A DNA stretch of 64,000 nt. Origin: an uncultured delta proteobacterium. GTDB taxonomy: Bacteria > Desulfobacterota > Desulfobacteria > Desulfobacterales > Desulfosalsimonadaceae. The stretch covers positions 608,001-672,000 of the forward strand of contig CAWGYD010000006.1 in NCBI GenBank assembly GCA_963826785.1, read 5' to 3'. A program made the translations under genes and the position numbers. Positions 6,627 to 64,000 of this stretch are shown in pieces. The notes beneath the pieces were generated by a model. The model saw only the letters and a program-made list of their open reading frames with translations. It did no database searches and was not told the origin of the DNA. Positions within the stretch are counted from its first letter, which is position 1. Every line of letters begins with the position of its first letter.

Positions 6627-6629
6627 CAG

Positions 6630-7814: not shown

Positions 7815-7823
7815 ACGAGACTG

Positions 7824-8306: not shown

Positions 8307-8358
8307 GGCAACCTTAAAGACGATTTGTTTTTTAAATGCTTAAAAAGGGAGGCGAAAA

Positions 8359-8850: not shown

Positions 8851-8864
8851 GACAAAAGGGTACT

Positions 8865-9365: not shown

Positions 9366-9392
9366 AATCGTGCCATCAGAAGGCAGGCAAAA

Positions 9393-10112: not shown

Positions 10113-10122
10113 GGCAGAATGA

Positions 10123-19568: not shown

Positions 19569-19722
19569 TTGCCGGTGCCGCAATACTGTTGTGCCGGCGT
19601 TTAAAAAGGGGCGGCCCTGCAGTGAGGCCGCTCCCATCCCCTTATCCAGATGGAGTCGATTCAAATAAGCGAGCAGAAAAGAATCTTCAAAAACACTATC
19701 ACTTGGAAAGGAGCGTGCCAAA

Positions 19723-43159: not shown

Positions 43160-43270
43160 GTTCAAATGTAAATTTATAAAGAAAGGAGGTGATGGCCACG
43201 TCCTGAAAGGTCTGCGAAATCGAACGGCGGAAATACGGATTCTTTTCAATGAAAAAAAGGAGATATATTG

Positions 43271-44914
43271 ATGAAAGCCAAAATTTTCTGGGTATCGATA
43301 CTGTTATTGGGCTTTATACTGGCCGGGCCCGCGGGTGCGGCCACCGACCGGGGGGTTGAAATCACCAAGGATGTGCTTTCCGGACCGGGAAGCATCGGAA
43401 TTACCACCTACAAAGACATCCAGATGAGTTTCGGTGCCCGCGGCCGGATCATCCCGGTGAGCGAGTCCGACTTTGACTTCGGCATCCGCGAAAATCTGCA
43501 GGCGCCGTTGCTGGGCGGTGCCGTACCGGATAACTTTTTCACCTTTCATGTCAATGAGTCCGGCTGGATCAACAACAACTATATCCGCTCCGAAAACCAG
43601 CTGTATTTCAATGCGCTTCCCGACAACCGCGCCTGGAGTTTCTATGCGGCCCTGGAATTCGACCGGCCGCTGGAAACCACTTCCGTGGACGACCGGGGCG
43701 GAAAAGATTACAAGACCAGCAATTTCGGTATGGAGCGGCTGCACGGCACGTTCGCCCTTCCGCTGAATATGCGGCTGCATGGCGGCTTCGACATCTGGGG
43801 GATCGATATCATCGATGCGGCCGGGCTGGTTTACGGCGACGACAATCCCGGGTTCTGGCTGACCGGCGATTATGATACGGTGAGCTTCAATGTCGGATAT
43901 TTCAAGCTTTCCGAGAGCAATTTCCAGACGACCGAGACGCTGACCCAATTGGGCGGCAAGGACGATGACCGTGACCTCTATGCCGGCTATTTGACGTTCA
44001 AGCCGGCGGAAGGGCAGAAATTTCAGCCCTTCTATGCGTTTGACCGAATCCGGGATGTGAAAGTGGGCAGCTTCTCGAATTATTTTACGGGCCAAATGGG
44101 TGCGGTACCGGATACCAATGTCCACCATGCCGGCGCCTATTACACCGGAAGTTTCGGGGTCCTGGAACTTTTCCTCGAAGGTGTGTACGAATTCGGCCAG
44201 GCAGACGATACCGGTCTGGCACAGGATGATTTCGACATTTCCGCCTATGCCTTTTCCGGCGACATCGGCTTCAAACTCGATGACATGTTCGGCTTCGGGG
44301 TCAAGCCCCATATCGGCGCCATCTATACCTCCGGTGACGACGATCCCACCGATGATACGTTGGGCGGCTATACCGGCGTGGAAAATGCCCAGCGGTTCTC
44401 ACAGTATTTCGGCGGTGAAAACACCATCATCGGCGATACGAACCTGGTGCTGGGCAGCGTCCTGTATGGGTTCCTGCCGGAGCTCTACGGCAACGGCACA
44501 CCGGTTTTCACCGGCGGCCTGGAGAATTTTGCGGGACTGGGCAGCGGCCGCGGGGATAACCCCGGTCTGACCATGGCCAGTGCCGGCATTACCCTGACCC
44601 CGAAAAAGTTTCTCATTTTCCGTTCAAACGTGAATGCCTTCTGGTGGAACGAGGATTTTGCGGTGACCAGTTTTTCCAATCCGGCCGTCACCACCACTGT
44701 TCAAAACGGCTACACCGGGGCGGAATGGGACAATGAAATCACCCTCGCTACCAGCCCCAACAGCTTCATCAAGGGGCAGTTCGCCTTTTTCTTCCCCGGG
44801 GAGGTCATTGAAGACGTGAGCAGCGCCCTTACGGCCCTGGCACCGACCCTTCCGGGCGAAAAGAGCGATGAAACGGCCATGCGCCTGGGACTGGAATTCA
44901 TCTGGATGTTCTAA
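43271..44914 (+). CDS. Outer-membrane porin-like beta-barrel
   Basis: Signal peptide; YTSGDDDP motif; ends LGLEFIWMF. Confidence 0.75.
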   Translation: MKAKIFWVSILLLGFILAGPAGAATDRGVEITKDVLSGPGSIGITTYKDIQMSFGARGRIIPVSESDFDFGIRENLQAPLLGGAVPDNFFTFHVNESGWINNNYIRSENQLYFNALPDNRAWSFYAALEFDRPLETTSVDDRGGKDYKTSNFGMERLHGTFALPLNMRLHGGFDIWGIDIIDAAGLVYGDDNPGFWLTGDYDTVSFNVGYFKLSESNFQTTETLTQLGGKDDDRDLYAGYLTFKPAEGQKFQPFYAFDRIRDVKVGSFSNYFTGQMGAVPDTNVHHAGAYYTGSFGVLELFLEGVYEFGQADDTGLAQDDFDISAYAFSGDIGFKLDDMFGFGVKPHIGAIYTSGDDDPTDDTLGGYTGVENAQRFSQYFGGENTIIGDTNLVLGSVLYGFLPELYGNGTPVFTGGLENFAGLGSGRGDNPGLTMASAGITLTPKKFLIFRSNVNAFWWNEDFAVTSFSNPAVTTTVQNGYTGAEWDNEITLATSPNSFIKGQFAFFFPGEVIEDVSSALTALAPTLPGEKSDETAMRLGLEFIWMF

Positions 44915-44940
44915 GGTCATTACCATAGATCAGCATGCGG

Positions 44941-44978
44941 TATGGCGGTCTCCGATTTTGAGGCCGCCATACTTTTTT
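44941..44978 (+). terminator. Rho-independent terminator
   Basis: TATGGCGGTCTC...GAGGCCGCCATA then CTTTTTT. Confidence 0.75.
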
Positions 44979-45017
44979 CAAGCGGCTTTCATACAATCAT
45001 AAGAAACAGGATCAAAA

Positions 45018-45989
45018 ATGTTTGGTAAAAATTTACGGCGGATAATGGCGATGGCGGCAATCTGCTGCCTGATGTCGGGATGCATGGGGTCCTGGCCGGA
45101 TGTGGTTTCCAAAGACCGGGCGCCGGGGGAAGAATATTCCAATGCCGAGGTCAGGCAGATGATCGTGGATCAGCCGCAAACGCTTTCCGGAGATTACTTC
45201 AGAAAGCGGGGGGCTGAAAATCTTTCTTCGGAAGAAAAAGAGCCGGCGGCACAAGGCCCGGCGCAGAGTGCGGATCAGCCCCATGATGCGTATGGGCTGA
45301 AGATCGGGATCATACCGGAGGAAAACCCCTATGACGCCATGGTCGCCGGGCAGTTCGCCACCGCAGCGCTTGCCGCTGCCGGCCCCGATATCATCCTTGT
45401 CGGACCAGACAGCATACAAGAGATCCTTGCAAATGCGAACTGTGCGGGCCGCGAGGACCTGTTCTGCATTGCCGGGCAGCTGTCCATTTATCCCGGCGTG
45501 CGCATGCTGATCATGTGCGACGCCGTTCATCTGCCCCAATCTTTTCCCGGGGTGGCCGCCCTTCGATGCAGTGTGGTGGACACCGGGCTCATCCATTCCT
45601 ATCCGGTGCAGGAGATGACCCTGACGGTTGAAAGCCGGGCGGATGCCGATGCCTTCCTGCAGCAGTCCCTTCAGCGGCTGTTTTCCTATGCGAAGGAGAA
45701 GGCCGTCATCATGCCCCGGCACTGCCGGGTCTTTTCGGTTAAGGATGAGAGGTGCTACATCGGCGCCGGTGCCGTGACCGGCCTGAAAACCGGCGATGTT
45801 TTCGATGTTTTTGCCGGCGGAGAAATGATCGCGTCGCCCACCGGGATTCCCGTGGGATGGATTCCCCGGGATAAAAGAGGAACGATTCGGGTAGAATCGC
45901 TCCTGGGCGAAGATTCGGCCGCATGCGAACCGGTGGACGGCACCATGCCGGCAGTGGGTGATTTTGTTATTTTGACCACAGGGCAATGA
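45018..45989 (+). CDS. Hypothetical lipoprotein (FlgT-C-like tail)
   Basis: MSGC lipobox; YIGAG...GLKTGDVF.V. Confidence 0.65.
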   Translation: MFGKNLRRIMAMAAICCLMSGCMGSWPDVVSKDRAPGEEYSNAEVRQMIVDQPQTLSGDYFRKRGAENLSSEEKEPAAQGPAQSADQPHDAYGLKIGIIPEENPYDAMVAGQFATAALAAAGPDIILVGPDSIQEILANANCAGREDLFCIAGQLSIYPGVRMLIMCDAVHLPQSFPGVAALRCSVVDTGLIHSYPVQEMTLTVESRADADAFLQQSLQRLFSYAKEKAVIMPRHCRVFSVKDERCYIGAGAVTGLKTGDVFDVFAGGEMIASPTGIPVGWIPRDKRGTIRVESLLGEDSAACEPVDGTMPAVGDFVILTTGQ

Positions 45990-47591: not shown

Positions 47592-47631
47592 AAAAGCGAA
47601 GCGTCCTGAAAGTCAGGACGCTGCGCTTTTT
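47592..47631. terminator. Bidirectional terminator
   Basis: AAAAGCGAAGCGTCCTGA-AAG-TCAGGACGCTGCGCTTTTT between convergent genes. Confidence 0.8.
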
Positions 47632-47638
47632 TGCTGGC

Positions 47639-49175
47639 TCAAATATCATTTTCAAAATCAAGGTGCATGAGCAAATCCGATCTTCCCACCAGCTCCCGTA
47701 CGCTTCTCATGCCGAACCGTTTTAAGATGTCCACCAGGTCTTTGCGCCAGGCGCTGTAGAGATTGACCACCCGCTGGGTGGCCCATTCCAGGTGCATCTG
47801 GGTCACCAGTCCCGGATCGGTGGTGGCGATTCCCCGGGGGCAGCCGCGCCCGGCCGAGCAGCGGGAGCAGCGGATGCAGCCCAGCGCCACCATTTCGGCC
47901 GTTCCCACCACCACGCCGTCTGCGCCCAGGGCAATGGCCTTGGCGATATCATAGGCGGTGCGCACGCCGCCGCTGGCAATCAGGGCGACCTTGTCCCGTG
48001 GCCCCTTCGTCCACCAGGAACTTGTGAACCTTGGCCACGGCGTATTCGATGGGCATGGCGATATTTTTCTTGGCGATGTCCGGGGCGGCACCGGTGCCGC
48101 CGTAGCCGCCGTCCAGATGGATGATATGCGTGCCGGCGGAATAGCTGCCCACGGCCACCATGTCCACGTCGGTGGGCGTGGACACCTTGGTGGAGATCAG
48201 GGCGCGCCGGTTGATGTGCTTGATCCAGTCGATATGCTTCATGTGGTCTTCGATGGAATAGACGCTGTGGAACGGAAACGGTGAAAACAGCGAGATGCCC
48301 GACCACGGCCTCCCGGATCTTGGCCACGGCAGGCGTGTTCTTGTCGCCCAGCAGATGTCCGCCCAGCCCGGGTTTGGCGCCCTGGGCATACTTGAATTCC
48401 ACGATGGGCACCCGCTGGATGGTTTCCTCGCGCACGCCGAAAAGGCCGGTGGCGACCTGGGTGATCATGTGGTCGTCATAGGGCCGCATCCGCTCCATGT
48501 ACCCGCCCTCCCCGGAGCAGGAAAAGGTATTCCACGCGGCCGCCGCACGGGCTTTGGCCAGCTGGGTGACATTGCTCACCGACCCGAAGGACATGCCGCC
48601 GCCATACCAGGGCACATCGATTTGAATTTGGGGCCGCCCGTCTTCCCGGTGGTTCAGCAGAATGCAGGTGTCGATCTCGTCATCGTCGAGGTCCACGTGG
48701 CGGTTTTTCCGGAAATTTGAACCGGATGCCGGTCAAATCCGCCTCCGGACTTCCCCACCTGGTAATCGAGTTCGTATTCATTCGGGCGGCGGGTTGCCGG
48801 TTTCGGCCATTTTCCAGGTGGCCAGCAGCATGTCCGCCGGCCAGCGATAATCGCCCAGGGCATTGATCATGGGGTTTTCCACGAGCCTCAGGGCCTGTTG
48901 CGGGCAATTGGAGATGCAGAAATGATCCGTCTTTTCACAAGCCGCGCCGATGCACAGGTAGCTCTTGGGGCGTGGCGAAATATTTATAGCCCGTCTTTTA
49001 GCACATGAACATGGTGGGGGCACAGTTGTGCGCATTTGCCGCACCGGATGCATGCATCGCTTCGAAAGATGATGTATTTGGCGATTTCATTGCGATAGCG
49101 CGGACGGGGCCGGCGTGATCTCCCGGCTGACATCGACCTGCGGGCACACGGGTTTTGAGCGTGTTTTCCGGCAGG
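47639..49175 (-). CDS. Ferredoxin + FMN-binding glutamate-synthase-like subunit (frameshifted as given)
   Basis: Fragments: GGMSFGS, SGEGG, QVATGLFGV, EFKYAQGAKPGLGGHL, DGGYGGTGAA, ASGGVR, CIRCSRC...CPRGIAT; start approximate. Confidence 0.85.
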
Positions 49176-49181
49176 ATCTCC

Positions 49182-50610
49182 TTAAGCTCTTTTTCTTGAA
49201 CCGAAAAGCGTTCCAAAGATTTCCTCCTCAAGGTCTTCAAAAAACATGGCGCGGCCGACATCGCCCCGCAGGCGGCGGGCTTCCCGCATTCCCATGGCGC
49301 CCATCAATTCGATCAGCTGCAGGTGCCAGGCGGCAATCAGGTTCCGTGATGCGCCCGGTCGCCATAATCAAAATCCGATTTCTTCCAGCCGGGCGGGACA
49401 TATCACGCCGGGTGCGCAAGTGCCGCAGAGACGGCATTCCAGGGCGATCATAAAGGGCAGATAAGAAGATACCAGGTCGGCGCCGCAGAGCAGGGCCTTG
49501 GCCATGTGCTCCGGCAGTGCGATGCCGCTGCCGGCAATAAGCGTCACTTCGTCCCGCCTGCCCGCTTTGATCAGGGTCGTATGAATTTCGCGGATCATGT
49601 CCTTGATGAACCGGGGGCGCTTTGCGCCGATCTCATCCCCGTTGCAGTCCCCCGCCACATGGATCACTTCGGCCCCGGCGTCCGCCAGTTCAACGGCGCG
49701 ATCTGACCCCCTGCGCATCGAGTGCGACCCGCACCGAAACGATCATCCCGGGATGGGTCTTTTTCAGTGCCGCCATCTGCTCGAAAGTACATCCGCATGG
49801 TCCGGGTATTTCCACCAGCCGCGTTTTGCTAAGCACTTCTTCGGGCAGGTCCGGCGCATCCGGATTCAGGTGAAAGGCGATGTGGGGCAGATATTGATCC
49901 ATATCCGTCATCTGGAGATCTTTTCCGGCGATCGGCCATTTTCCCGAATCGATGATGGCGATCAGGTCGGTCTGCTTCACCGCTTCGATGATAAACGGCT
50001 CCAGCTGCGGCAGGGTGAATTCGGGCGGATTCATGTCGATGATCAGCGGCATGGGAATGTCGATGATGGCCGGCGGTTCCGCCACGTTTCGCCCCTCATC
50101 GAAATTGAGGTAGGACGGCTTTTTTCCGATATCCACCGAGGTGGAGATATATTCCCGCCCATGAATGCCGTCCCGGGTGGGCCGGACGATTTCGGACATG
50201 TCCGTCCACATGGCGTCAAATCCTTTGCCCGCGAATTTTCCCCGGTACCCCGCGCCGGAAACGGGTACGGATGCCGTTTCGGACTGCTGCCAGGTGCTGT
50301 GGATGATTTCCGGGGTCCAGTAATGGTTTCCCATCTGCTGGTATTCGGTGTTGATGGTCAGGCACAACAGGTTCTTGGTGCAGTTCTGCACACAGGAAAA
50401 ACAGCCCATGCACTCGAAAAACAGAAAATCCGTGAACTTGAGATTGCGGATGTACTCGGATTCCTGGCGGTGGCGGTCGTACACGCAGGCCTTCTTGACG
50501 CAGTTGTGGCACCGGGCGCAGTCTTCACGCCAGTCCACGATGCCGTGCTTTCCCACGCGGGGAAGCCGGGGCGGGACCGGGGTGGTCTTGATATGGTATT
50601 TTTCTGGCAT
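49182..50610 (-). CDS. Ferredoxin + degenerate glutamate-synthase FMN-domain paralog (frameshifted as given)
   Basis: CARCHNCVKKAC, CMGCFSCVQNC; WTDMSEIVRPTRDGIHGRE; KALLCGAD, ECRLC..C; WHLQLIELMGAMG. Confidence 0.8.
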
Positions 50611-50624
50611 TGTTTTCCCTCGAA

Positions 50625-50668
50625 ATCAAATCCCCCCTTGCCCCCCTTTTTACAAGGGGGGTAAAGGC
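50625..50668. repeat. REP-like intergenic repeat
   Basis: ATCAAATCCCCCCTTGCCCCCCTTTTTACAAGGGGGGTAAAGG; related copies at 53161-53256. Confidence 0.7.
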
Positions 50669-50675
50669 AAAAACC

Positions 50676-51587
50676 TTATGATAATCCCGCAGCCGAAAGG
50701 ATCTCCGGGACGCAACTCTCCCTGCCGCCGGAAAGGATATGGATGCCGCGCACCCCGTCCATCCCCTTGATCTTTTTGATCGTCTCGATGCAGATGGCCA
50801 TCCCCTCTCTGTTTTGCGATGCTTCATCGCCTGCGGCCGCCAGCCGTTCGATGACGGCATCGGGAATGGATACATCCGTATACTTTTTGCTCAGGCGCTT
50901 GGCTTCATCCGCGCCGGAAAGCGGCATGACGCCCGCGATGATGGCGGCCTTTTCCGTAATTCCCTGGCTGCGGGCTTCTTTCAGCCAGTCGGAAAAAGTG
51001 TCCGTGTCGAACACGGCCTGGGTCTGGATGAACCGGGCGCCGGCGGCCACTTTTTTGGAAAGGCGCAGGATATTGAGCGCAAGCGGTTTCATGTCCGGGC
51101 CGGCCGCCGCGCCGATGAGCATGGAAAACGGCCCCTTGATGGTGCTCCCGTCCAGGAGAAGCCCTTCTTCGCACATCTTTTTCACCGCGGCAATCAGCTG
51201 GATCGAGTCGATGTCATAGACACTGGCGGACTGGCGGCTTTCCGTGAGCGACGGGTGATGCCCGGAAAGGCACAACAGGTTTTTAATCCCTAAAGCCGCT
51301 GCGCCCAGAAGATCCGACTGGAGCGCAATCCGGTTCCGGTCCCGGGTGACCATCTGGTAGACCGGCGCCACACCGCTTCTGCCCAGGATCACGGCGCCGG
51401 CAAGGCTGGACATGATGGGACCGTGGGGATTGTCCGCGACATTGACGGCCGCCAGGCCGTTTTTAAAAAATCCGGCACACGTTTCGATCGCCTTCTCCTC
51501 TCCGCCTGCGGGCGGGAGCAGTTCAGCCGTCACGATAAACTCGCCGTTGTGGATCTTGTCTGCCAGATTGCCGTTTTCTCGGGTCAT
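50676..51587 (-). CDS. metF: Methylenetetrahydrofolate reductase
   Basis: TAELLPP, NVADNP, TRDRNRIALQSD, FIQTQ, GIHI; intact ORF. Confidence 0.9.
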   Translation of the reverse strand: MTRENGNLADKIHNGEFIVTAELLPPAGGEEKAIETCAGFFKNGLAAVNVADNPHGPIMSSLAGAVILGRSGVAPVYQMVTRDRNRIALQSDLLGAAALGIKNLLCLSGHHPSLTESRQSASVYDIDSIQLIAAVKKMCEEGLLLDGSTIKGPFSMLIGAAAGPDMKPLALNILRLSKKVAAGARFIQTQAVFDTDTFSDWLKEARSQGITEKAAIIAGVMPLSGADEAKRLSKKYTDVSIPDAVIERLAAAGDEASQNREGMAICIETIKKIKGMDGVRGIHILSGGRESCVPEILSAAGLS

Positions 51588-51595
51588 ATGATCTC

Positions 51596-51988
51596 CTATT
51601 GCTGATTCCCTATCGATTCGCGCAATGCGTTTATTTCTTTAATCACCTGTGGGATGCCGTCCTTGCTTGTTTTCCGGACCACCCGGATGCGCCCCCGGTC
51701 CAGGCCCGATTCCGCAAGAAGGGCATCCACGGCGTCGGCGCGTTTTTGCGCGCGGAGGTTGCCTTCGAGAAATTTGCAGTCCCCATCCCCGCAGGTGACC
51801 AGCATCACGGCGTCGGCGCCCTTTTCAAAGGCCTTGAGCAGATACAGCAGGTTCACTTTTCCGGAGCAGGGAAGGCTGACGATGGTTAATTCGCATTTTC
51901 CCGATTCGAAGCTTTGTCTGAGCGCATTTGCATCCAGGCTGTTTGCGCAGTAGAACAGGGATAATTGCAGTGGCTTGTCATTCATCAT
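51596..51988 (-). CDS. MvhD-like iron-sulfur subunit, divergent copy
   Basis: LPCSGKV, AFEKGAD, CGDGDCKFLEGN. Confidence 0.8.
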   Translation of the reverse strand: MMNDKPLQLSLFYCANSLDANALRQSFESGKCELTIVSLPCSGKVNLLYLLKAFEKGADAVMLVTCGDGDCKFLEGNLRAQKRADAVDALLAESGLDRGRIRVVRKTSKDGIPQVIKEINALRESIGNQQ

Positions 51989-52006
51989 GGATATCCCGGG
52001 CAATGG

Positions 52007-52675
52007 CTAAATTTTGTGGTCTTCACGGACAATCTCCGCGGCATCCGCCGGAAAGGCTCGGCTCCCAGTTTTTGGGCGGCTCGATGGCGTTTAGCCGGTC
52101 CAACTGCCCGATATTTTTCAGGCGCTGGTAGATCAGCTGCCAGGCGCAGGGCCGGTCCGGGCGCACTTCGCAGCGGTCTTCGCGTGATCCGCCGCAGGGG
52201 CCGTTGAGCATGTGTTTGGCACACCGGGTGACCGGGCAGATCCCCCCGAACTGGTGCAGGACGCAGTCGCCGCAGGCCGCGCATTTCTCGGTCCACACGC
52301 CCCTTTCTTCCAGGATGCCCAGAAAGGCGGTATTGAGCCCCGCATAAACGGGCTTGTCGGCAAAACGCTCGGCAATGGCCTGGACACCGGCGCCGCATCC
52401 CAGGGAAAGCACGGCCTCGTTTCGCCCGATGGCCTCGGCCGCCGCTTCGATAAAGACATTGTCGCACTGGCGCTCGATGGTGAGCTCTTCCACTGAAAGG
52501 CCCAGGTCTTCACCGTGGAGGCGATCCGCAGGGCCGAGGAGATGATGGACACCTCGCGCTCTCCGCCGGCCAGGCAGACGGTCACGCACGTACCGCACCC
52601 CAGTACCAGTATTTTTTTATACCCCTGAAGGATTTCGACCAGCTCGGGGATGGATTTTCTTTCCGCTACGATCAT
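52007..52675 (-). CDS. metV: MetV (MTHFR small Fe-S/Zn subunit), frameshifted as given
   Basis: [46 protein letters not shown]. Confidence 0.85.
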
Positions 52676-53121
52676 GAATGGGTCTCCTGTTTCATGGATG
52701 TGTGGGCAGGATTGGATCTGACGGGGTTGGGCCCGAGACTGCGGACGGTTTCGATCATGTCGACGACGATCTCGACAAAGCGGCGGGCGTCTGCCGCGCC
52801 GATGTTCACCATCCGCAGGCGTTCTTTTTCGAATCCGGCTTCGGCCAGAATCGCGCGGGCATAATCGACCCGGCGCTTGGCCATGAAGTTGCCTTCGATA
52901 AAATGGCAGCTGCCTTCCTCGCACCCGGCCACGAGAACCCCGTCGGCCCCGTTTTCAAAGGCCCGCATAAAATATTCCACTTCCAGCTTGCCGGTGCAGG
53001 GCGTCCGGATAATCCGGATGTTGGGGGGGTACTGCAGTCGCATGGAACCTGACAGGTCCGCGGAGGAATAGGCTCAGTAATGGCAGCAGAAGGCCACGAT
53101 TTTCGGTTCGAAATTTTCCAT
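52672..53121 (-). CDS. mvhD: MvhD/FlxD-type iron-sulfur subunit, selenoprotein
   Basis: [18 protein letters not shown](53074-53076)[16 protein letters not shown] in frame with [17 protein letters not shown]. Confidence 0.88.
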
Positions 53122-53160
53122 GGGTTTCCTGATATTTGCTTTTTTTAGCAATTGGGTTTC

Positions 53161-53256
53161 GGCCTTTCTCCCCCCCTTTTTTTCAAAGGGGGGCGGGGGG
53201 GATTTTTTGTAGTGCGATCAAATCCCCCTGAATCCCCCTTTGAAAAGGGGGACTTT
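53161..53256. repeat. Two back-to-back REP-like repeats
   Basis: Inverted pair, each AAATCCCCC-N-CCCCCTTT-GAAA-AGGGGG-like. Confidence 0.7.
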
Positions 53257-53280
53257 GGACCCCGGTTCTCCGGGGATTTT

Positions 53281-56200
53281 TTAATTCGCTATCCGTTCAT
53301 TACACGAAAACAGGTCGTCCAACATGATGTTGAAGTGCCGGGCCTCGAAATGGTTCAGCTGGATGGCCCGGGCCGGGCATTCGGATGCGCAGATGCCGCA
53401 CCCCATGCACTTGGCGGCCGCGATTTCCGCCTTATGGTCGCGGTTGACAAACGGCGCCCCATAGGGGCAGGAGTGGACGCAGGTCATGCACGAAATGCAT
53501 TTTGACTGGTCCACCCGGGAAACCTGGGCGCCGACTTCCAGATGCGTCTTTGACAGCACGGTGGCGGCTCTGGCCGCCGCGGCCCGGGCCTGGGAGATGT
53601 TCTCGTCCATGAACTTGGGCGAGTGGGCCAGCCCGCACAGGAAGATCCCTTCACTGGCGAAATCCACCGGCCGCAGCTTCAGGTGGGCCTCCACGAAAAA
53701 GCCGTCCGGCGTTTAACGGCACCTTGAGCATGTTCGACAGGGCGTGATTGGCCGGCGCGGGCGAAATCCCCGTGCTCAGGACCACATGGTCCGCCTCGAT
53801 CTCGATGGGCTCGGGGAAATCCGGGCTGTGAAGCGCCACCAGAAGCCCGTTGTCGTCTGTCACCACCGGCGGTTTTGCCTCATCATAGCGGATGAACACC
53901 ACCCCGGCCCGGCGGGCCGTCTTGTAATATTTCTCCCGGAACCCGTAGGTCCGGATATCCCGGTAGAGGACGAAGATGTTCGCATCCGGGTTTTTCTTTT
54001 TGATGGCCAGCGCATTCTTGACCGCCATGGAGCAGCAGATCCGGCTGCAGTAGGCGCGCTCGTCGTTGCGCGATCCCACGCACTGGATCATGACGATGTT
54101 TTTGCCGGCGCCGTCAAATGTCTGATCATGCAGACCCTTTTCCAGTTCCACCTGGGTGATCACGCTTGGGGATGCATCGATGCGGTACTCGGAAGTTTCT
54201 GCCATGTCCGCCCCGGTGGCCACGATGATGGCGCCGCAGGGGACCTCGACGGGTTCACCGCCGTTTTGAGACAGTTTTGCGGAAAACTTGCCCACATGCC
54301 CGGCAATGCCGGCCACTGCCGTTTCCAGGTGAAGTATCACATGGGGATGTGTTTTGACTTTTTGAACCAGGGAATCGGTGAAATCCGATATCGCCTCGTG
54401 CTCCAGGGTGCCGTGGATGTCGCGCAGATGACCGCCGAGAGATGCGGTCTTCTCCACCAGGTGCACCTTGAAGCCCTGCTCCGCCAGGGACAGGGCCGCG
54501 GTCATGCCGCTCAAGCCGCCCCCGATGACCAGGCCCAGTTGGTTGATGGCAAGCGTTTCCCCCAGCTGGGGGGAAAGATGCCGGGCCCGGGCAATGGACA
54601 TGCGCACCAGTTCGATGGCTTTTTGGGTGGCCGCTTCCGGCTGGGATGCGTGCACCCAGGAGCACTGATCCCGGATATTGGAAAGATCGAACAGGTAGGG
54701 GTTTAGGCCCGCTTCCCGCAGGGTTTCCCGGAACAGGGGCTCATGGGTCCGGGGGGTGCAGGAGGCCACCACGATCCGGTTGAGCCGGTGGGCGGCAATG
54801 GCCTCCTTGACCGACGAGAGGCTGGCATCGGAGCAGGCATACATGGAGTGGGTGGCAAAGATGACGTCGGGATCGTGCTCGATGGCCGCGGTCACCTTTT
54901 CCACATCCACGGTGGAGGCGATATTGATGCCGCAGTGGCAGACAAACACGCCGATTCTGGGCTTCTCATCGGTGATATCGCGTTCCTGCGGATACTCCCG
55001 TTTGGCGACGAGCGTGTTGCGGGCTTTCCCCAGCAGTTCCATGGCCATGGAGGCCGCGCCGCTGGCCTGGGTGACGGTTTCGGGAATATCCTTGGGCTCC
55101 TGGAACACGCCGGCCACAAAGATGCCCGGCCGGGAGGTTTCAAGGGGGGAGAAGCGGTCCGTGGCGGCAAATCCGTATTCGTTGAGCGCGATGCCAAGGC
55201 GTGAAATCGGTTCGGAAACCGTTCTTTTGGGGTCGAGCCCCACAGACAGGACCACCAGGTCGAACTCCCGTTCTTTAATCCCCTCGCCGGTCATAAACCG
55301 CAGCCGAAGGTCCTTGGTGCCGGGAATCTCCAGGACCCGGGAGGGAATGGCTCTTGATATAACGGATGTTGCCCTGGCTTTTGGCGCGTTCGTAATACTG
55401 GTCGAAGTCTTTGCCGAAGGCCCGGATATCCATGTAGAAGATGGCGGCTTCAAGACCGTCGACATGCTCGCCGGCCACCAGGGCCTGCTTGGTGGCGGCC
55501 ATGCAGCAGATGGAGGAGCAGTATTCCTTTTCGCACCGCAAATCCCGGGACCCCACGCACTGGATAAAGGCGATGCGCCGGGCTTCGCGCCGGTCGGAGG
55601 GGCGCAGCACATGGCCGGCAAAGGGCCCGGCGGCTGACAGCATCCGCTCGAACTGGACGCTGGTGAGGACGTTGGCATACCGGCCGAAACCGTATTCGCC
55701 TTTGAGCTCGGCCTCAAATTCCTGAAAACCGGGGGCCAGGATGACCGAGCCGACCTCAAGGGCGATCACTTCTTCTTTCATGGCGTGGTCGATGGCCTCT
55801 TTCTCGCAGGCATCCACGCACGCGCCGCATTCGGAGCAAATGGCGCAGTTTAGACACCGCTCGCTTTCCGCCATGGCCTGATCTTCAGAAAAGGCCGTGC
55901 TCGATTTCCGAAAAATCACGGATGCGCTGGGTTACCGGCAGTTCATCGGCTGCGGCCCGCGGCGTTTTTTCTATGCCTTTGGCCGACGGCAGCAGCTTTT
56001 CCGGCACCGGTTGGAGGGTATCGGCAAACCGCGGCGTTTCCGGGTTGACGCCCCGGACATAGCGGTCGATGGATTCGGCGGCCCGCTTTCCCGCAGCCAC
56101 CGCTTCAATCACCGTGGAAGGCCCGGTGACGATATCCCCCCCGGCAAAGATGCCCGGGATTTCGGTGACGCAGTTGGCATCGGCGATGATGTTTCCCCAG

Positions 56201-57753
56201 GCGTTCACCTTCAGGTCGTGCGCCGCATCGGAAAGCGAGGTATCCGGCTGGCTGCCGATGGCCAGGATCGCCGTGTCCGCGCTCATCTCGAATTCGGACC
56301 CCGGCTCCGGAACCGGCCGTCGGCGCCCGGATGCATCCGGTTCGCCAAGCGTCATCCGGATGCACTTTACCCGGCCCAGCCGGCCGTCGGCGCCGGCGAC
56401 AAATTCCACGGGATTGGTGAGAAACGCAAACCTCACCCCTTCGTCAACGGCATGCCGGATCTCTTCCGGAATGGCGGGGAGTTCGTTTTTGCTCCGGCGA
56501 TAGACGATGGTGACCTTGTCCGCGCCCAGCCGGACGGCGCAGCAGGCGGCATCCATGGCCACGTCCCCGCCGCCGACCACGATCACATGCCCGTTAAGGG
56601 ATGGCTTGTTGTCGGTGGTGCTGGCCCGGTAAAGAAATTCAAGCCCCTGGACCACCCCGGGCAGGTCATCCCCCTTGACCTTTATGGGCGTGCCCTTCTG
56701 GGTGCCGATGCCCACAAATACGGCCTGGTGATCGTTGCGCAGTTGTTCGAAAGAGATGTCTTTGCCCACCCGGCAATTGTAAACAAAGGAGACCCCTTTT
56801 CGCCGGATCAGTTCGACTTCGTAGTCGAGGATGTCCGCCGGGAGGCGGTAGTCCGGGATGCCCCACCGGAGCATGCCGCCCGCAGCCGGCGATGCCTCAT
56901 ACACGCTCACGGCATACCCCCGGTCGGCCAGATCCTGGGCCGCCGTTAAACCCGAGGGGCCGGCGCCGATCACCGCGATTTTTGCAGCATCCGATGCCGG
57001 AATTTTTTCTTCGGGAAGAGCGATCTCCCCCGAGGCTACCAACTCCATTTCTTTGTCTGAGGCAAAGCGCTTCAGCTGCCGGATGGCCACCGCTGAATCG
57101 ACATTTTTCCGGGTGCAGGCACTCTCGCAGGGATGGGTGCAGACCCGGCCGCAGATGGCGGAGAGCGGGTTGCGCTCCCGGATCAGCCGGACCGCCTTGA
57201 CGTATTCCTTTTTTTTGATGAGCTGGATATACCCCTGAACGTTGATGTTTGCCGGGCATGCGGTCTTGCAGGGGGCGTGTCCGAGTTTGAGGATGCCCAC
57301 CTTGTTGGGCACCGCCTGGGGCGAATACTTGGCGATGGCCTTGCGCCTGCCCAGGTTCCGGTTAAACCGGTCATCGAGCTCAACCGGGCAGACCGGGGAG
57401 CAGTCCCCGCAGTCGTTGCAGATCTTCGGGTCGACATAGCTGGGGGATTTTTTGACGGTTGCCGTGAAACGGCCGGGCTCGCCTTCGACGTTGAGCAGCT
57501 CCGAGTAATTCAGGATTTCGATGTTCAGGTTGCGGGCGCACTCCACCAGTTTGGGGGAGACGATGCAGGTGGCGCAGTCGCCCGTGGGAAACGTCTTGTC
57601 CAGGTGGGACATCATGCCCCCGATGGCCCCGCCGCGTTCGACCAGGTAGACCTTGAATCCCGAGTTGGCCAGATCGAGGGATGCCTGGACCCCGGCGATT
57701 CCGCCTCCCTGCACCAGCACCGCGCCGGTGGGTTTTTTTTCATTTTCGACCAT
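53281..57753 (-). CDS. hdrA: Large HdrA-like flavoprotein with inserted GltD-type NAD(P)H module (HdrL-like); 3 frameshifts as given
   Basis: GGGIAG, LDKTFPT.DC, CPANIN..GY, CGRVCTHPCE, GGGDVAMD/YRRS, IQCVGSR twice, YCS.ICC twice, CHCGINI, IRDQCSWVH; shifts near 55920, 55350, 53705. Confidence 0.9.
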
Positions 57754-57757
57754 GATA

Positions 57758-58655
57758 TTAAATGTTCCTTGAAATCGTCTGGGCAGTTGCGTTCACGGCA
57801 TTGATGATTTTCGACGGGGAGACCACCAGCTTGTTCAGGCCGAGCCGGTCCGGTGATATGCCCAGGCACAAACCGATCAGCTGGCGTGATATAGATCACC
57901 GGCATGTCATAGCGCCGCCCGGTGGTTTTTTGAATATCGATCTGCCGGAGGTCCAGGTTCACCTGGCACAAGGGGCAGGCCACGGCGATGCAGTCGGCCC
58001 CCGCGGCCTTGGCCATGCCGATAATCGCATCGGACAAGCTCACCACGAGATCGGATCGGGTGGTCAGGGACAGGCTGTTTCCGCAGCATTCCACCTTGCC
58101 GGGCCAGTCCAGGCTTTGTCCGCCCAGGGCCGTGACCAGGGTGTCTATCGACCGGGGGTTTTCCGGGTCGTCGAAACGGGTGACCTCGTGGGGCCGGACC
58201 AGCAGGCACCCGTAATAAGAGGCCACCTTGAATCCGTTCAAGGGGCGGGTGATTGCTTTTTCAAGAAAATCCATGCCGCAGTCTTCGAAAAGCACTTCCA
58301 TCAGATGCTTTACCTTGACCGAACCGTCGTAATCCCGGCCGATGGCATCGGCGATTTTGGCGCGCATGCCCGGATGGTTTTCGATTTCGTAATTTGCCGT
58401 TTTCAGACGGTTGTAGCAGGCGGCGCAGTTCACCACCACATCGAGGCCCATGTCTTTGGCCAGCACCAGGTTCGCCGCCGAAAGACTCGCCGCCAGATAA
58501 CGGTCGGTCTGGTGTCCCGGCGTGGCGCCGCAGCAGGACCAGCCCTTGATTTCGATCATGTCGATGCCCAGCGCCCGGGCCACGGCGAGGCTGGATGCAT
58601 GCTGGTCGCGGGCGGACGATTCCGAGGAACACCCGGGATAATAGGCATATTTCAT
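57758..58655 (-). CDS. hdrB: Heterodisulfide reductase subunit B (one frameshift near 57885)
   Basis: YYPGCS, SCCG, CAAC, YYGC, ECCG, ACPLC. Confidence 0.92.
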
Positions 58656-59215
58656 TATAAAATTTCCTTGTTTTGCCTGACTTTGGCAAATATCCGCTTC
58701 ACCGTTTTCCGGTTGGGGCTCCAGGAGGGAAGGATGGCGATTTTTTTCTTCCTGAAGATGACGGGGATCTTGTCCGAGTCCCGTCCGTAGGAGGAAGTGC
58801 CGCTTTTATACAGGGCCATCAGCCCCAGATCATAGGTGCGGCCGAAAATCTTGACGGTCTTGAGAAAAGCCCGGTTGAACAGCGGGATGTTGCCTTCCGG
58901 GACGGCGGCGTTTCGCTCGACGGCCAGTTTGCGCAGCACATCCATGACCGACACCAGATCGATCCCCATGGGGCAGCGGGCATGGCAGGTTTCACACGAG
59001 ACGCACGTCCAGATCAGGCTGTTTGAAAGCAGTTCATTGCCGGCGCCCAGCTGCAGGCGGCGGATCAGTTCGGAAGGGGGAGACGGGACATGGCCTGAAA
59101 CGGTGCACCCGCATGAACATTTACGGCATTGATAGCAAAGACCGATATCCACGCCGGACATCTTTGCCACCGTATCGCGTATCCCTGTTTGGCCTTTTTT
59201 GATTCGAATCGTCAT
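58655..59215 (-). CDS. hdrC: Heterodisulfide reductase subunit C
   Basis: CYQCRKCSCGC and WTCVSCETCHARCP. Confidence 0.92.
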   Translation of the reverse strand: MTIRIKKGQTGIRDTVAKMSGVDIGLCYQCRKCSCGCTVSGHVPSPPSELIRRLQLGAGNELLSNSLIWTCVSCETCHARCPMGIDLVSVMDVLRKLAVERNAAVPEGNIPLFNRAFLKTVKIFGRTYDLGLMALYKSGTSSYGRDSDKIPVIFRKKKIAILPSWSPNRKTVKRIFAKVRQNKEIL

Positions 59216-59224
59216 ATGATCATC

Positions 59225-61879
59225 CTAATTGCTCAGGTCCCCCACCGTTTCCATCTCGCGCGGCTTTTCCATCGCCTTTTTCATGGCCGCGCCCACCGCG
59301 GAGGGGACGACTTTGCGGTAGACGCTTTCCGGGGGCATCGATTTACCGTCGATGGTTAGCAGGTCCTCGATGCGGATATTGAAAAGCCGTTCGTTTTCCG
59401 TCAGGTACGGCCGTATCAGCTCCCAGTCCGCATCGGTTAAGGGGAGAAACATGCCGCCGTTTAACTGTCCGTCCACCATGATGCCGTGCGGGTCCCGGAT
59501 ATAGATGGCCCCGCCGGAGGCCAGCGAGAAGAGGTTGCCGCCGGGATAGGGCTGGGGCAGGGGAACGATGGCGCCGTCATCATCGAACCGGATGCCGTTT
59601 ACGATGACAAACCCGCCCCCCTGGTGGGGATCTCCGGCCATGAACGATTCGGCCAGAAAGTCGAGCGCCGTGCCGTTGATCACCACCCGGGGCCGCCCCA
59701 CGGAGTTGATGAGCGGGCCGGCCGGCGGCATTGCCCATCACATAGACCACCCCGCCCTTGGCGCCGTACATGAAGGTCTGGCCGACATCGCCGTAGACCA
59801 CCAGTTTGCCGCGCTTGAAAATCTGCCCCAGCTGATCCTGGGCATTGCCGTGAACCGTAACGGCCATCCCGTCGATCCCGGAGGCGAGGTAATCGCCGCG
59901 AGCTCCCGTACACGTCGATGACCACGTCATCCGTGTCCGGTCCGAGTCCGCACCCGACATATCGCTGGCCCGAACACCGGTAGCAGATAAATTTTCGCCA
60001 TCCTTTAATAAATGCGTCCACCAGAAGCGCCGCGTCGCAGTCATCGCCTTCCGGAGGAAACCCATGCGCGTTGATCACCAGGGTGGTCTTCGCCGGAAAG
60101 CGGCGCCCTCAGACAATGGCGGGTGTCAAAATCGATCAGGCGGTAGGGGCTTTTCTCCGCGTCCCCGGCGTCAATGGGCGGGAGGCTGCCGAAGAGGCGG
60201 TCGAGTTCCCCGTGGACAATATGCAGCAGATGGCTTCTTTTCTTGGCACCGGTCGGATATCGAAGATCGTTGAGCAGCGTCAATGACTGAATCGCCCTGC
60301 GGGTAAACCGGGGATTTTTCCCCTTTTTCCGGATCGCCTGGCAGGCGGCGCCCACATCGTCGAAATTCCAGCCGGGAACCGCGTCACGGACAGCGGCGAA
60401 AATATCGGCGGCATCGCCGGTTTCCATGCAGCCGTTGATCCTGCTCTCAATTTCCGGATGGGGCGCCGGTGATCCTTCGTTTTGTAAAATCGCATGATTC
60501 GGATTGCTCCGGCAGGGGAACTGCCGCGCCGAACTTGTCCGTGCAGCTGATCCGCATATTGCCGGCAAGCATCCGGCGCCAGATTGAAGATAAACGCCCC
60601 GCCGTCCGTGTGGCTGCCGCCCCGGGCGTTCCAGTACCGGTCCGCCACCGGGCAGATCCGCTTGTCGTCTTTGGCCAGGCTGGTGAGCGTGGCGTCGATG
60701 GCCTGCTTCTCGGATGCGATCAGACCGACCTGCACCTCTCCGTCCGCGAAGGCGAACACCTGGGGCCGCAGCATGGAGGTGTCGGTGATGCCCAGAAGCT
60801 GGAATTTATTCTTTTCGGGAATGTTGCGGGCGATGATGAAAAACCAGGGGCCGTCGGGCGAGCCGTGGATGTGCGTTGCCTGGATGGCCCGGTAGATCTT
60901 CTGCTTTTCGGCGGGCAGATGGTCAAAATCGAGTTCCGTGGTGGGCGCCAGCGCTTCGATGATGTACTCCAGCGGGTATTTGTAGGTCCGGTTGAGCAGG
61001 TCGAACATGAGGGCGGACACCTCCGTGTCGGTGATAAACTGCGGGAAGATGTTGCGCTGGAGCAGGTATTCGGTAACGCAGTGGTAATTGGCGAAATCGC
61101 CGTTGTGGACCAGGGCCATGTTGATCCCGGCAAAGGGATGGGCGCCGCCGGGATGCCAGACCCGCCCCTTGGTGGGAAACCGCTGGTGGGCGATCCAGGC
61201 ATGGGCGGCCAGATCTTCGATCTTGTAGTATTTTACGATGGCTTCGGCATAGCCGACCACCTTCAGGATCATGATGTTTCGGCCGTGGGACAGGACAAAT
61301 GCCTGCTGATCCTTAAGCGACGCGTAGTATTCCTGGTTGAGCCGGAAACTGTTCTGGTTGACAAACTCGTCTTCGGCTTCCCGGGGGGCGAATCCCTCAA
61401 ACCCGTTTTCTTCTATAAAGGTGGCAAGGACATCTTCCTTCACCCGGACGAAATACCGCCACACATCCGGCGGCCTGACTTCCAGTCCACTGACGGCTGT
61501 CCAGTCGTCCACTTTGTCCAGCGTCGTTTGAGGCTTTCACATCGAAATGGGGCGTGATGTATTTTTCCTCCAGCGCCGGCCGGACCTCCGGGTCCAGATA
61601 GGCCACATGAATCATGTAGCAGGTGTCCAGGATTTCCCGGCTGACCCCCAGCTGCTCCGGGACCAGGCCGACGGCGGCGATTCCCCCGCCTTTTCCGTTT
61701 CCGCGGTTGTGCATCAGCCGCGACGGCTCATATATGTGGCGTCCGGCCACCGGCTGGGTGCAGCAGAAGCCGACGACCCCGCAGCCCCCTTCTTCCTCGC
61801 CCTTTGCGACGCTGCAGGGAAGTTCAAGATTGCGGACGAGGCGTTTTTTTGATTCCAGAAGCTTTTGTATCCTATCCAA
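59225..61879 (-). CDS. Glutamate-synthase-like subunit: Ntn amidotransferase + GXGXG domain (about 5 frameshifts as given)
   Basis: EEEGGCGVVG, RGNGKGGG, AHQRFPT, AHPF, VHNGD, LRP, ASE; GNAQDQ, GDVGQTFMYGAKGG; likely TTG start 61879 after GGAG. Confidence 0.85.
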
Positions 61880-62060
61880 TTTCCAATGCTCCACGGTAGG
61901 TGTGGTCGAAAATATCATTCAAAGGGTTTATTTACGGGATGGCACGCATAAAAAAACGTCTTTCCCGGAAAAACCGGATAAGACGCCTTTGTCTTGTTCC
62001 TCTATTTTTGCTCGCTAAAACACGCCGTTGTGCTTTGTCGGGCAGCATGAAAGGTGCTGA

Positions 62061-62089
62061 AATATATTTTTTATTGATATGTTTGTCAA
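62061..62089 (-). promoter_or_regulatory. Sigma70 promoter of the glt-hdr-met operon
   Basis: TTGACA-N17-TATATT on minus strand. Confidence 0.65.
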
Positions 62090-62380: not shown

Positions 62381-62707
62381 ATGATGCCGATCACATTGAG
62401 CCGATATGCCCTGGTGGGAATGGTAGGGTTGATGGTGCTGGGCCTGGCCCTGATCGGGGCGGCCCTCTTCCGGCCGAAACCGCAGGCGCGGGATGTGCCG
62501 ACGGGTTGGCACCCGTATCTCATCGGGTACCCGGTTTACGCGCTGATATTTATCTCCTTCGACATGGAAATGATTTTCATGTACCCATGGGCGGTGGTTT
62601 TCGTGAAACACGGGGTAAAGGCTTTTATGGATATGCTGGTATTTATCGGGTTGCTGGCGGCCGGGATCAGTTACGCCTGGGGCATGGGGGGGTTCAAGTG
62701 GGAGTAG
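62381..62707 (+). CDS. nuoA: Complex I subunit A-like
   Basis: ALIFISFDMEMIFMYPWAV, YAW..GGFKWE. Confidence 0.85.
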   Translation: MMPITLSRYALVGMVGLMVLGLALIGAALFRPKPQARDVPTGWHPYLIGYPVYALIFISFDMEMIFMYPWAVVFVKHGVKAFMDMLVFIGLLAAGISYAWGMGGFKWE

Positions 62708-63600
62708 TGCTGACGGCATTTTATCTGATGGCGGGTCTTGCCGCCGGGGCCTGGCTCACCCAGCAGATCGAACGGCGGGTCTACGGCACCCGGTATGAAG
62801 CGGGCCCTGCCCGTCCGGTCAATTTCACTACCGTGCCGTCAACCCCCCGCGCGGACCGCTGGATGTATGCGGCCGGACCGGTCAGCGCCCTTTTCGGCGT
62901 TGCCGCGGCCCTGGTGGTCATCCCTTTCAGCCGAACCTGGATCGGGGCGGACCTGGGGATCGGCGTCTTCTATTTCATCGTGGTGGTGGATTTTACGGTA
63001 CTGGGGCTGGCCATGGGCGGATGGGGGGCCAACACGCCCGATGGCGCGGAAGTCTACTACCGCGCCACGGCCCAGCTAATCTCCTATGTGATCCCGCTGG
63101 GCCTGGCCTATATCGGGGCCATCATGATGGCAAAATCCCTTTCCACCGTCAAAATCGTGGAGGCCCAGTCCGGGCTCTGGTTCATTGTCACCCAGCCCGT
63201 CGGATTTGCCCTCTATGTGGTGACCGCCCTCATGCAGAGTTTTCGGCCCCCGTTTGTGGAAGCGTTTTCCAGAAAAATCGATTACGGGGTGCTGACCCTC
63301 TATGGCGGCGGATATGCCGTTATCTGGCGCGTGGCCATGTCCGGGCTGCTGTTCGCGGTATCGGCCATGGGCGCGGTCCTGTTTTTGGGGGGCTGGCAGG
63401 GGCCGCTGCTGCCGGGACCGGTATGGATGCTGCTTAAGACCTTGCTGATGATGCTTTTGCTCACCGTTGCCGGATCGCAAATCCAGCCGCTGACGACGCA
63501 CCAGATGCTTCAGTTTTCCTGGAAGGTGCTCACGCCGGTGGGGCTGGCCAATGTTTTGCTGGTGGGGCTGGAAATCCTGCTGGGGGTGGGAGTGAAATGA
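62698..63600 (+). CDS. nuoH: Complex I subunit H-like (divergent)
   Basis: ERR, VIPF, GW, R.TAQLISY, IVEAQ, LFLGGW, WK.LTP. Confidence 0.8.
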   Translation: MGVVLTAFYLMAGLAAGAWLTQQIERRVYGTRYEAGPARPVNFTTVPSTPRADRWMYAAGPVSALFGVAAALVVIPFSRTWIGADLGIGVFYFIVVVDFTVLGLAMGGWGANTPDGAEVYYRATAQLISYVIPLGLAYIGAIMMAKSLSTVKIVEAQSGLWFIVTQPVGFALYVVTALMQSFRPPFVEAFSRKIDYGVLTLYGGGYAVIWRVAMSGLLFAVSAMGAVLFLGGWQGPLLPGPVWMLLKTLLMMLLLTVAGSQIQPLTTHQMLQFSWKVLTPVGLANVLLVGLEILLGVGVK

Positions 63601-64000
63601 TACTGCATCCGATGGCCCAATGGGCCTCCTTCTTCATCTTTGCCTTTATCTCCGTGGCCGGCGCCGTCGGGATGGCTACCACCATGAGCATGTTCCGGTC
63701 CGGCATTTTCCTGATGGCCTCCTTCATCGGGGTGGCGGGCCTGTTTATCCTGCTGCTGGCCGACCTGCTGGCCCTGCTGCAGGTGATGATGTACATCGGC
63801 GGCATGCTGGTGATGATCCTGTTCATGGTGATGTTTTCACACGATCCCGGCGGCTCCATGATGGCGGGGATGAACATGTCCCCGGTGGAGGATTTCTTCT
63901 CCGCGGGCATCGTCCCCGAAAAGATGGAGCATATGGACATGAAAGGGATGTCCATGACCACCCCGGTAAAAAAACTGGCAGCGGTCATCGGGGTGATCAC
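63597..64000 (+). CDS. nuoJ: Complex I subunit J-like, partial, with Met-rich loop
   Basis: Manual translation: VAGLFILLLAD..ALLQVMMYIGGMLVMILFMVM; ATGA overlap with nuoH. Confidence 0.8.
   Translation, partial: MILHPMAQWASFFIFAFISVAGAVGMATTMSMFRSGIFLMASFIGVAGLFILLLADLLALLQVMMYIGGMLVMILFMVMFSHDPGGSMMAGMNMSPVEDFFSAGIVPEKMEHMDMKGMSMTTPVKKLAAVIGVI

Follow-up and report, generated by a model that had tools for sequence, protein, structure and literature searches.

A probable nitrogen-regulated split glutamate synthase fed by Hdr subunits, with a probably folate-blind MetF, in an uncultured member of the Desulfobacterales

Glutamate synthases such as GltBD of Azospirillum brasilense (PDB 1ea0, 2vdc, 6s6s) and the split GltB1/2/3 enzymes of clostridia and archaea are built from amidotransferase, flavin mononucleotide (FMN)/3Fe-4S and GXGXG parts. 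The HdrCBA-MvhD-MetVF system of Moorella thermoacetica and Sporomusa ovata is encoded by six genes in one cluster, ordered hdrC-hdrB-hdrA-mvhD-metV-(..)-metF, and its Moorella HdrA, of ~1490 aa, holds a GltD insert and a Glu/Lys signature in both halves; in acetogens, the second acceptor of the HdrA-MvhD-MetVF module is an open question (accessible parts of PMC9430772). Methanogens possess the putatively F420-dependent FGltS(I/II), in which, judging by gene context, a split glutamate synthase has recruited another dehydrogenase module (accessible parts of PMC3448663), and N-methylglutamate synthase, MgsABC (GlxBCD), has the same three domain types encoded by separate genes. Here we describe a ten-gene operon that brings such parts together. 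It lies on the minus strand of a 64,000-nt stretch of DNA (hereafter the window, in whose positions all coordinates are given) from an uncultured delta proteobacterium of the Desulfosalsimonadaceae (assembly GCA_963826785.1, contig CAWGYD010000006.1, positions 608,001 to 672,000).

The operon runs in the order amidotransferase-GXGXG, hdrC, hdrB, hdrA (with a GltD insert), mvhD (with a selenocysteine codon), metV, a second mvhD (mvhD'), metF, and two ferredoxin-FMN genes that we call FMN1 and FMN2 (gene names follow this order). Pfam and tblastn searches with intact relatives bore out both this order and the common direction of the ten genes, as proposed in an earlier sequence-only reading. The amidotransferase, FMN/3Fe-4S and GXGXG parts carry catalytic motifs as in GltBD and GltB1/2/3, and there is a GltD-like module as in GltBD, but it sits inside HdrA and no free GltD is present. 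Unlike in those enzymes, the amidotransferase is fused to the GXGXG domain, there are two ferredoxin-fused FMN paralogues, one of them predicted to be inactive, and the operon includes Hdr, MvhD and MetVF subunits. The latter resemble the Moorella and Sporomusa cluster in gene order and the Moorella HdrA in size, insert and signature, yet an extra MvhD is present, glutamate synthase genes surround the module, and no acetyl-CoA synthase was found in half of the carriers. On balance, we think that this operon probably encodes a nitrogen-regulated, Hdr-fed split glutamate synthase whose MetF has probably become folate-blind.

Frameshifts interrupt six of the ten genes in the assembly (tblastn with intact relatives). 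Since other genes of the same genome (selA, a second split glutamate synthase and one more) are likewise broken and the relatives are intact, these are probably read errors; residue counts were therefore taken from the relatives' intact copies, and the motifs were then checked in the gene pieces of the window. Three sets of relatives were used: the 80 best amidotransferase loci out of about 1200 stretches (ten-gene sample, with host-genome counts on 50 carriers), 80 loci of a shorter, six-gene form (host-genome counts on 50 genomes, mostly of one order), and a phylum-wide set of 40 of the 84 non-self FMN1 matches, picked for family spread and contig room. The metagenome-assembled genomes (MAGs) are incomplete, which limits gene-absence counts in carrier genomes.

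The linkage proved to be conserved across phyla, far beyond chance, albeit in a sample made up of the 80 nearest stretches. The ten-gene loci, whose closest named members are Desulfobacterales MAGs, span Desulfobacterota, Planctomycetota, Bacteroidota/Ignavibacteria, Verrucomicrobiota, Chloroflexota, Spirochaetota and others, i.e., at least six phyla of anaerobes. Directly after the amidotransferase gene stood hdrC in all 73 informative loci (the remaining 7 of 80 end too soon), and metV and metF were present in every locus with room to show them. In 44 of the 80 loci all ten genes were found, circularly permuted so that mvhD' comes first, and 16 loci showed the window's own order as far as they extend. 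Of 301 genomes sampled from the phylum, 85 carry the FMN1 family, which also extends to at least five further phyla. A protein search gave 7105 matches at E<=1e-30 among 8000 scored, named merely 'ferredoxin' or 'glutamate synthase-related protein', and a plasmid search gave no full-length FMN1 match. The six-gene form (loci L105-L184, L094-L096 and L100) reads mvhD-metV-metF-FMN1-FMN2-glutamine amidotransferase. It lacks an NAD(P)H subunit, its MetF looks intact, and it is a candidate methyl-tetrahydrofolate (methyl-THF)-driven glutamate synthase.

The glutamate synthase core retains all the catalytic motifs examined, at its amidotransferase and at one of its two FMN subunits. The class II glutamine amidotransferase fused to the GXGXG domain (59225-61879; ~885 aa long in relatives, interrupted by six frame breaks in the window) showed Cys1 after a propeptide, HxRG, HQR, HNGD and TDTE in all 71 full-length relatives and in the window pieces, and its GXGXG domain scored above the PF01493 cut-off. 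FMN2 (47639 to ~49220, several frame breaks, start approximate) carried GEGG, KxxQGAKPG (as KxAQGAKPG), GGTGA and the 3Fe-4S-type cluster cysteines in 55/55 relatives, with the sequence context of the 2-oxoglutarate Arg in 51/55. These motifs were also kept in the phylum-wide loci (FMN2 in 40/40, amidotransferase in 37-38/40). Aligned to A. brasilense GltB (1ea0/2vdc; E 6e-54), FMN2 retains the residues numbered Glu886, Lys931, Lys937 and Arg957; its closest type is the clostridial ferredoxin-fused GltB2, at 39-40% identity.

FMN1 (49182-50610, one frame break) is a different matter. Two ferredoxin-FMN GltB-like genes had been proposed, and two are indeed there, but they are not equivalent: none of 54 FMN1 sequences carries the FMN2-type catalytic motifs, while the ferredoxin and C-terminal cysteines are retained. 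The predicted FMN1 fold matches the GltB FMN domain (Z 21.6, root-mean-square deviation 3.7, 295 residues aligned), in a model with a predicted local distance difference test (pLDDT) score of 67 and a mostly low-scoring N-terminal stretch of 180 residues. With such a fold and the catalytic motifs gone, FMN1 is, on the strength of this model, an inactive FMN-domain paralogue, a ferredoxin-fused pseudo-GltB2. It does hold an invariant motif that aligns with xPxxDxxRE in 59/59 FMN1 and 0/59 FMN2 sequences; the counterpart, TNPxIDPxRE, stands in the GltB central domain and in a clostridial GltB2. A true central domain (PF04898) was not found in the cassette proteins, and the idea that FMN1 folds like that domain was not borne out.

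The Hdr subunits appear fit for electron transfer from NAD(P)H. The large HdrA (53281-57753, three frame breaks; HdrL/Moorella architecture, ~1490 aa) consists of two HdrA halves, the first of which is interrupted by the GltD-like NAD(P)H module. Equivalents of Glu356 and Lys409 were found in the first half of 50/50 ten-gene relatives, and in the second half Lys was kept in 47/50 and Glu in 41/50; such a pair at the HdrA flavin is the criterion for bifurcation in the accessible parts of PMC9430772. HdrC (58655-59215) has two 4Fe-4S clusters by Pfam, and HdrB (~57760 to 58655, one frame break near the 3' end) keeps both CCG motifs of the non-cubane cluster. The nucleotide site of HdrA ends in YRR in 11/50 relatives, including the window, and in acidic LE in 39/50, endings that we take to denote NADPH and NADH, respectively. 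NAD(P)H-driven glutamate synthesis is estimated to release ~49 kJ/mol, and with co-reduction of ferredoxin the net would be -14 to -29 kJ/mol; bifurcation would thus be energetically feasible. In mvhD (52672-53121; Pfam, tblastn), the proposed selenocysteine codon stood up to comparison: the in-frame TGA at 53076-53074 aligns with Cys in 47/54 relatives and with TGA in 7/54, and selA is present in the genome, so that selenocysteine is the likely residue, even though folding did not support a selenocysteine insertion sequence (SECIS) hairpin at the TGA (z +0.38). Next come metV, for the Fe-S subunit (52007-52675, frame breaks near 52500 and 52035), and mvhD' (51596-51988; Pfam, relatives), a divergent MvhD with four invariant Cys.

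Across the phylum, the core stays and its partners change. The FMN1-FMN2 pair was constant in 40/40 loci, being fused into a single protein of ~1000 aa in four of them (L223-L226), and an MvhD gene adjoined it in 37/40; mvhD' is thus the MvhD that travels with the glutamate synthase core. The input genes were MvhD alone in 8 loci, MvhD and MetV in 2, MvhD-MetV-MetF without Hdr in 19, a flavin adenine dinucleotide (FAD)-linked oxidoreductase replacing MvhD in 3, and Hdr genes in 8 (HdrCBA in 3, HdrA in 2, HdrA with an HdrC-like gene in 2, and hdrC/hdrB downstream in 1); further partners may be encoded elsewhere. Such a fixed core with varying input genes is the pattern expected if the Hdr, Mvh and Met proteins are the electron supply to a fixed enzyme, not its chemical partners. 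The likeness to FGltS(I/II) holds to this extent, although there the input is an FrhB/FdhB homologue (accessible parts of PMC3448663), and here MvhD-linked Hdr/MetVF or a FAD oxidoreductase. In the three loci of the last kind (L235-L237, from G307, G141 and G215), the core was preceded by a FAD-binding oxidoreductase of 614-630 aa with a 4Fe-4S dicluster, and no MvhD was seen; this form is a candidate hydroxy-acid-driven glutamate synthase.

The upstream leader and the neighbouring genes point to nitrogen control. Between the promoter and the first gene (61944-62050, minus strand) lie two six-base-loop hairpins, whose loops begin at 62029 and 61990 and have A at position 1 and G at position 4, and an intrinsic terminator that overlaps the second hairpin. 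This arrangement is conserved in nine aligned ten-gene leaders, with 95.6% of cells paired and three pairs showing a double change (nine sequences only). It resembles the ANTAR dual-hairpin antiterminators as defined in the accessible parts of PMC3369931 (Ramesh et al. 2012), where such leaders are tied to nitrogen genes and are found before glutamate synthase genes of Desulfotomaculum reducens; the leader described here, unlike those, precedes an Hdr-linked cassette. A covariance model made from the nine leaders gave 57 matches in 69 six-gene loci. Of these, 51 precede mvhD (in 49 loci), 3 precede an FMN-family gene and 2 precede glnA, with 1 unassigned. In this genome it gave two matches, at the cassette and before an FMN-family gene beside a GAF-ANTAR gene. 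A GAF-ANTAR gene lies elsewhere on the same contig, and its product is a candidate cognate regulator of the leader. An Rfam search gave no match above the gathering score.

Genes for glnA, PII, amtB, glnD or NrpR were found within the fetched stretch in 19/40 phylum-wide loci, and in 27/40 when GAF-ANTAR and the FMN-family gene were counted too; the chance rate, from 20-kb stretches drawn at random from this genome, was 2.8%. Among the leaders listed, no cassette was preceded by the NrpR operator pattern, which we take to be GGAA-N6-TTCC. The FMN-family gene just mentioned encodes a stand-alone FMN barrel of ~530 aa of the 'glutamate synthase family' without GltB catalytic motifs (G000:C6:822600-826400; L093, L188; the same type at L194-L197, L062, L084, L150, L157 and L178). 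It was found under the same ANTAR-type leader or beside NrpR, often near a GAF-ANTAR gene or the cassette, and may be a further member of a nitrogen regulon.

The sequence-only reading had left three options open: coupling of C1-folate redox to glutamate, methyl-amine chemistry, or an Hdr-driven glutamate synthase. Conserved linkage across phyla, GltB-type catalytic motifs and the nitrogen-assimilation context support the last; methyl-amine chemistry finds no footing (see below), and folate coupling is doubtful for the ten-gene form, because MetF Asp120 is lost in 59/59 sequences, metF is absent from 13/40 operons and no acetyl-CoA synthase was found in 25/50 genomes. In E. coli MetF, Glu28, Asp120 and Gln183 bind the pterin (accessible parts of PMC11868366), and we checked the numbering by alignment to the solved structure of that protein. 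At the Asp120 position, ten-gene MetF has Tyr in 50, His in 8 and Thr in 1 sequence, and the window's metF-like flavoprotein (50676-51587; Pfam, alignment) has His. This sets it apart from a Moorella-type methylene-THF reductase, by a criterion taken from E. coli MetF and not from the Moorella sequence. In the phylum-wide sample, Asp120 was kept in 22 of 27 operon MetF proteins, and the five without it all stand beside Hdr genes and two MvhD genes. Ten-gene MetF also forms a long branch in the tree, 46/50 ten-gene genomes hold at least two matches to the methylenetetrahydrofolate reductase family, and this genome has two further hdrA-mvhD-metV-metF clusters (G000:C1:60100-66700 and C4:91100-97200) whose MetF has Asp120. 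The second of these also includes a divergent second MetF-like gene. We suggest that, in the ten-gene form, MetF has probably lost folate turnover and serves as flavin relay or scaffold.

In our proposed mechanism, nitrogen limitation would cause an ANTAR protein to relieve termination in the leader. The amidotransferase would hydrolyse glutamine, and the ammonia would add to 2-oxoglutarate at FMN2, with FMN1 acting as a scaffold and Fe-S relay where one-chain GltB has its central domain. NAD(P)H would enter at the GltD module of HdrA (NADPH here, if the presumed meaning of YRR holds), and electrons would pass from HdrA via MvhD, MetV(F) and MvhD' to the FMN1/FMN2 clusters and on to FMN, a relay order drawn by analogy from the Moorella/Sporomusa model and from the genes that survive in reduced forms. 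In the least certain step, HdrA may split the electron pair, with ferredoxin or a disulfide at HdrBC as the second acceptor. In a bolder version, which we offer as a tentative possibility and hold to be rather doubtful, all ten subunits would form a bifurcating glutamate synthase: HdrA would split the NAD(P)H electrons, with one branch leading through a folate-blind MetVF/MvhD wire to glutamate and the other to ferredoxin or the HdrBC disulfide, and energy would be conserved during nitrogen assimilation. This complex would represent one of two states of a widespread MvhD-docked enzyme, the other of which burns methyl-THF as reductant.

Several observations weigh against an Hdr-fed, nitrogen-regulated and folate-blind enzyme. 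A simple wire from NAD(P)H to FMN would not need an intact HdrBC. The two closest relatives (L012, L017) lack the ANTAR leader, its model gives only 7 matches in the 40 phylum-wide loci, and nitrogen neighbours occur in only 17/80 ten-gene loci. The fold of FMN1 is that of the FMN domain and not of the central domain, a role for which one motif speaks. Asp120 is kept in three of the eight Hdr-bearing loci (L205, L206, L212), which rejects the notion that Hdr is always paired with MetF decay, and all sequences without Asp120 fall on one side of one tree branch (support 62); the loss may be a single event, in which case the contrast between 0/59 ten-gene and 70/70 six-gene proteins is not independent evidence. 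Because Glu28 is kept in 59/59 sequences and the protein is well conserved, ten-gene MetF could still be catalytic. In addition, canonical GltB occurs in 32/50 ten-gene carriers, which disposes of the idea that the cassette replaces it there, and the genome at hand encodes a second enzyme of the split type that brings a GltD-like subunit of its own, so that the cassette would often be redundant if solely assimilatory. That second enzyme (L092, G000:C6:803600-808900) consists of an amidotransferase, a ferredoxin-FMN protein and GXGXG plus a GltD-like protein, and adjoins carAB. In favour of our reading, canonical GltB was not found in this genome; among six-gene genomes it was found in 5/50 and not in the other 45. 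The redundancy of glutamate synthases in carriers, taken with the intact HdrBC, suggests a further function, for example in conserving energy.

The foremost alternative is that MetF still turns over methylene- or methyl-THF, so that methyl-THF oxidation drives glutamate synthesis or NAD(P)H feeds both methylene-THF and 2-oxoglutarate. For this speak the presence of metV and metF in all ten-gene loci with room, the invariant Glu28, and Gln183, which is kept in 26/59 sequences and in the window. The six-gene relatives strengthen the case: their MetF keeps Glu28, Asp120 (70/70 scored) and Gln183 (69/69), with 10 of the 80 loci unscored, and lies near the MetVF-type copies of the genome itself, and 43/50 of the six-gene genomes have acetyl-CoA synthase. 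Driving glutamate synthesis by methyl-THF would, by estimate, be downhill by ~26 kJ/mol. The methyl-THF potential is given as -200 mV in the accessible parts of PMC9430772. The consistent lack of Asp120 on a long branch and the operons without metF argue against it for the ten-gene form, as does acetyl-CoA synthase, found in only 25/50 ten-gene genomes, a comparison with 43/50 that is confounded by taxonomy and by incomplete MAGs; in the genome at hand, acsB is present. Folate coupling is therefore plausible for the Hdr-less six-gene relatives and, in our view, unlikely for the ten-gene operon.

Alternatively, one promoter might serve two enzymes that work apart: a split glutamate synthase of the ordinary, ferredoxin-dependent kind, and an Hdr-Mvh-Met complex in its own right that provides reduced ferredoxin or keeps redox in balance. 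The identity of FMN2 to clostridial GltB2 is compatible with this, as are the eight phylum-wide loci with MvhD as sole input gene, where the core can evidently stand with little, and the self-contained HdrCBA-MvhD-MetVF complex of Sporomusa (accessible parts of PMC9430772). Yet the gene blocks interleave and remain linked through circular permutation, a dedicated second MvhD accompanies the core in 37/40 loci, the genome has separate hdrA-mvhD-metVF clusters, and the cassette MetF is degenerate. We therefore find the separation of the two improbable.

More improbable still is a redox sink or a catabolic direction, in which glutamate synthesis, or its partial reverse, mainly disposes of or harvests electrons. 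Canonical GltB in 32/50 ten-gene genomes, the retention of HdrBC and the bifurcation signature, and the lack of an ANTAR-like leader before the mvhD-first order among the leaders listed would fit such a function; the nitrogen-gene neighbours and the ANTAR/NrpR context would not. Moreover, glutamine hydrolysis makes the full glutamate synthase reaction practically one-way.

We give almost no credence to an anaerobic N-methylglutamate synthase that links methylamine to the folate pool via MetF. MgsABC is likewise a split amidotransferase/GXGXG/FMN enzyme (accessible parts of PMC6237917), but three Mgs loci, recognised from their annotation and from a gmaS/glxC context, differ from the cassette at every diagnostic motif. 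Where 55/55 FMN2 show the GltB forms, all three MgsC read GDGG, lack the Lys before xxQGAKPG and read GGTAA; at the HQR that the cassette shares with GltB, MgsA reads HTR. Ferredoxin domains are lacking in MgsABC, and GmaS and sarcosine-oxidase-like genes are linked to it. GmaS scored above cut-off in 1/50 carrier genomes and was not found in this one, and FMN2 scored 86-96 bits against MgsC and 155-225 against GltB2/GltB. In the phylogeny, FMN2 and MgsC fell in separate clades, though a joint clade was not rejected (approximately unbiased test, p-AU 0.40), and the tree is uninformative on this point.

In targeted searches of open-access literature, we found no description of this gene combination, nor is it described in the accessible parts of PMC5736913, PMC7325909, PMC6085437, PMC2702500 and bioRxiv 2021.09.25.461819. 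The parts as such are known; their assembly into an Hdr-linked glutamate synthase cluster is, as far as these searches reach, undescribed. In the FMN1-marked family, MvhD appears to be the port by which various electron donors are attached to a common core. If our reading is correct, it would amount to a new nitrogen-assimilation route for energy-limited anaerobes and provide a concrete candidate acceptor for the HdrA-MvhD-MetVF module, and hdrABC-mvhD-metVF clusters in metagenomes would not always be Wood-Ljungdahl markers. The Asp120 contrast between six-gene and ten-gene MetF offers a direct two-enzyme comparison.

As for the boundaries of the operon, one promoter and one terminator had been proposed, and both were located. 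The promoter (62061-62089, minus strand) is of sigma70 type, with -35 and -10 elements and a 17-nt spacer, and matches the consensus at 11 of 12 positions; it is a consensus match only, and the scan as a whole gave 6 matches compared with 6.7 in shuffles, i.e., no excess. Downstream, a 10-bp hairpin with T-rich tails on both strands (47600-47622, readable on either) is likely a bidirectional terminator common to the operon and a convergent acyl-CoA ligase gene. Seven of the nine intergenic gaps are overlaps or shorter than 20 bp, and the remaining two, of 159 and 65 bp (53122-53280 and 50611-50675), carry a REP-like palindromic repeat with ~46 related places in the genome. Elsewhere in the window (658-11118, 15825-21291 and 43268-45989), we noted long open reading frames without a Pfam match at 1e-8 (495, 637, 394, 331, 1247, 522, 548 and 323 aa). 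Directly upstream of the operon, on the plus strand (62381-64000), lie divergent NADH dehydrogenase-like genes (NuoA- and NuoH-like, Pfam), which were not seen at this position in most relatives.

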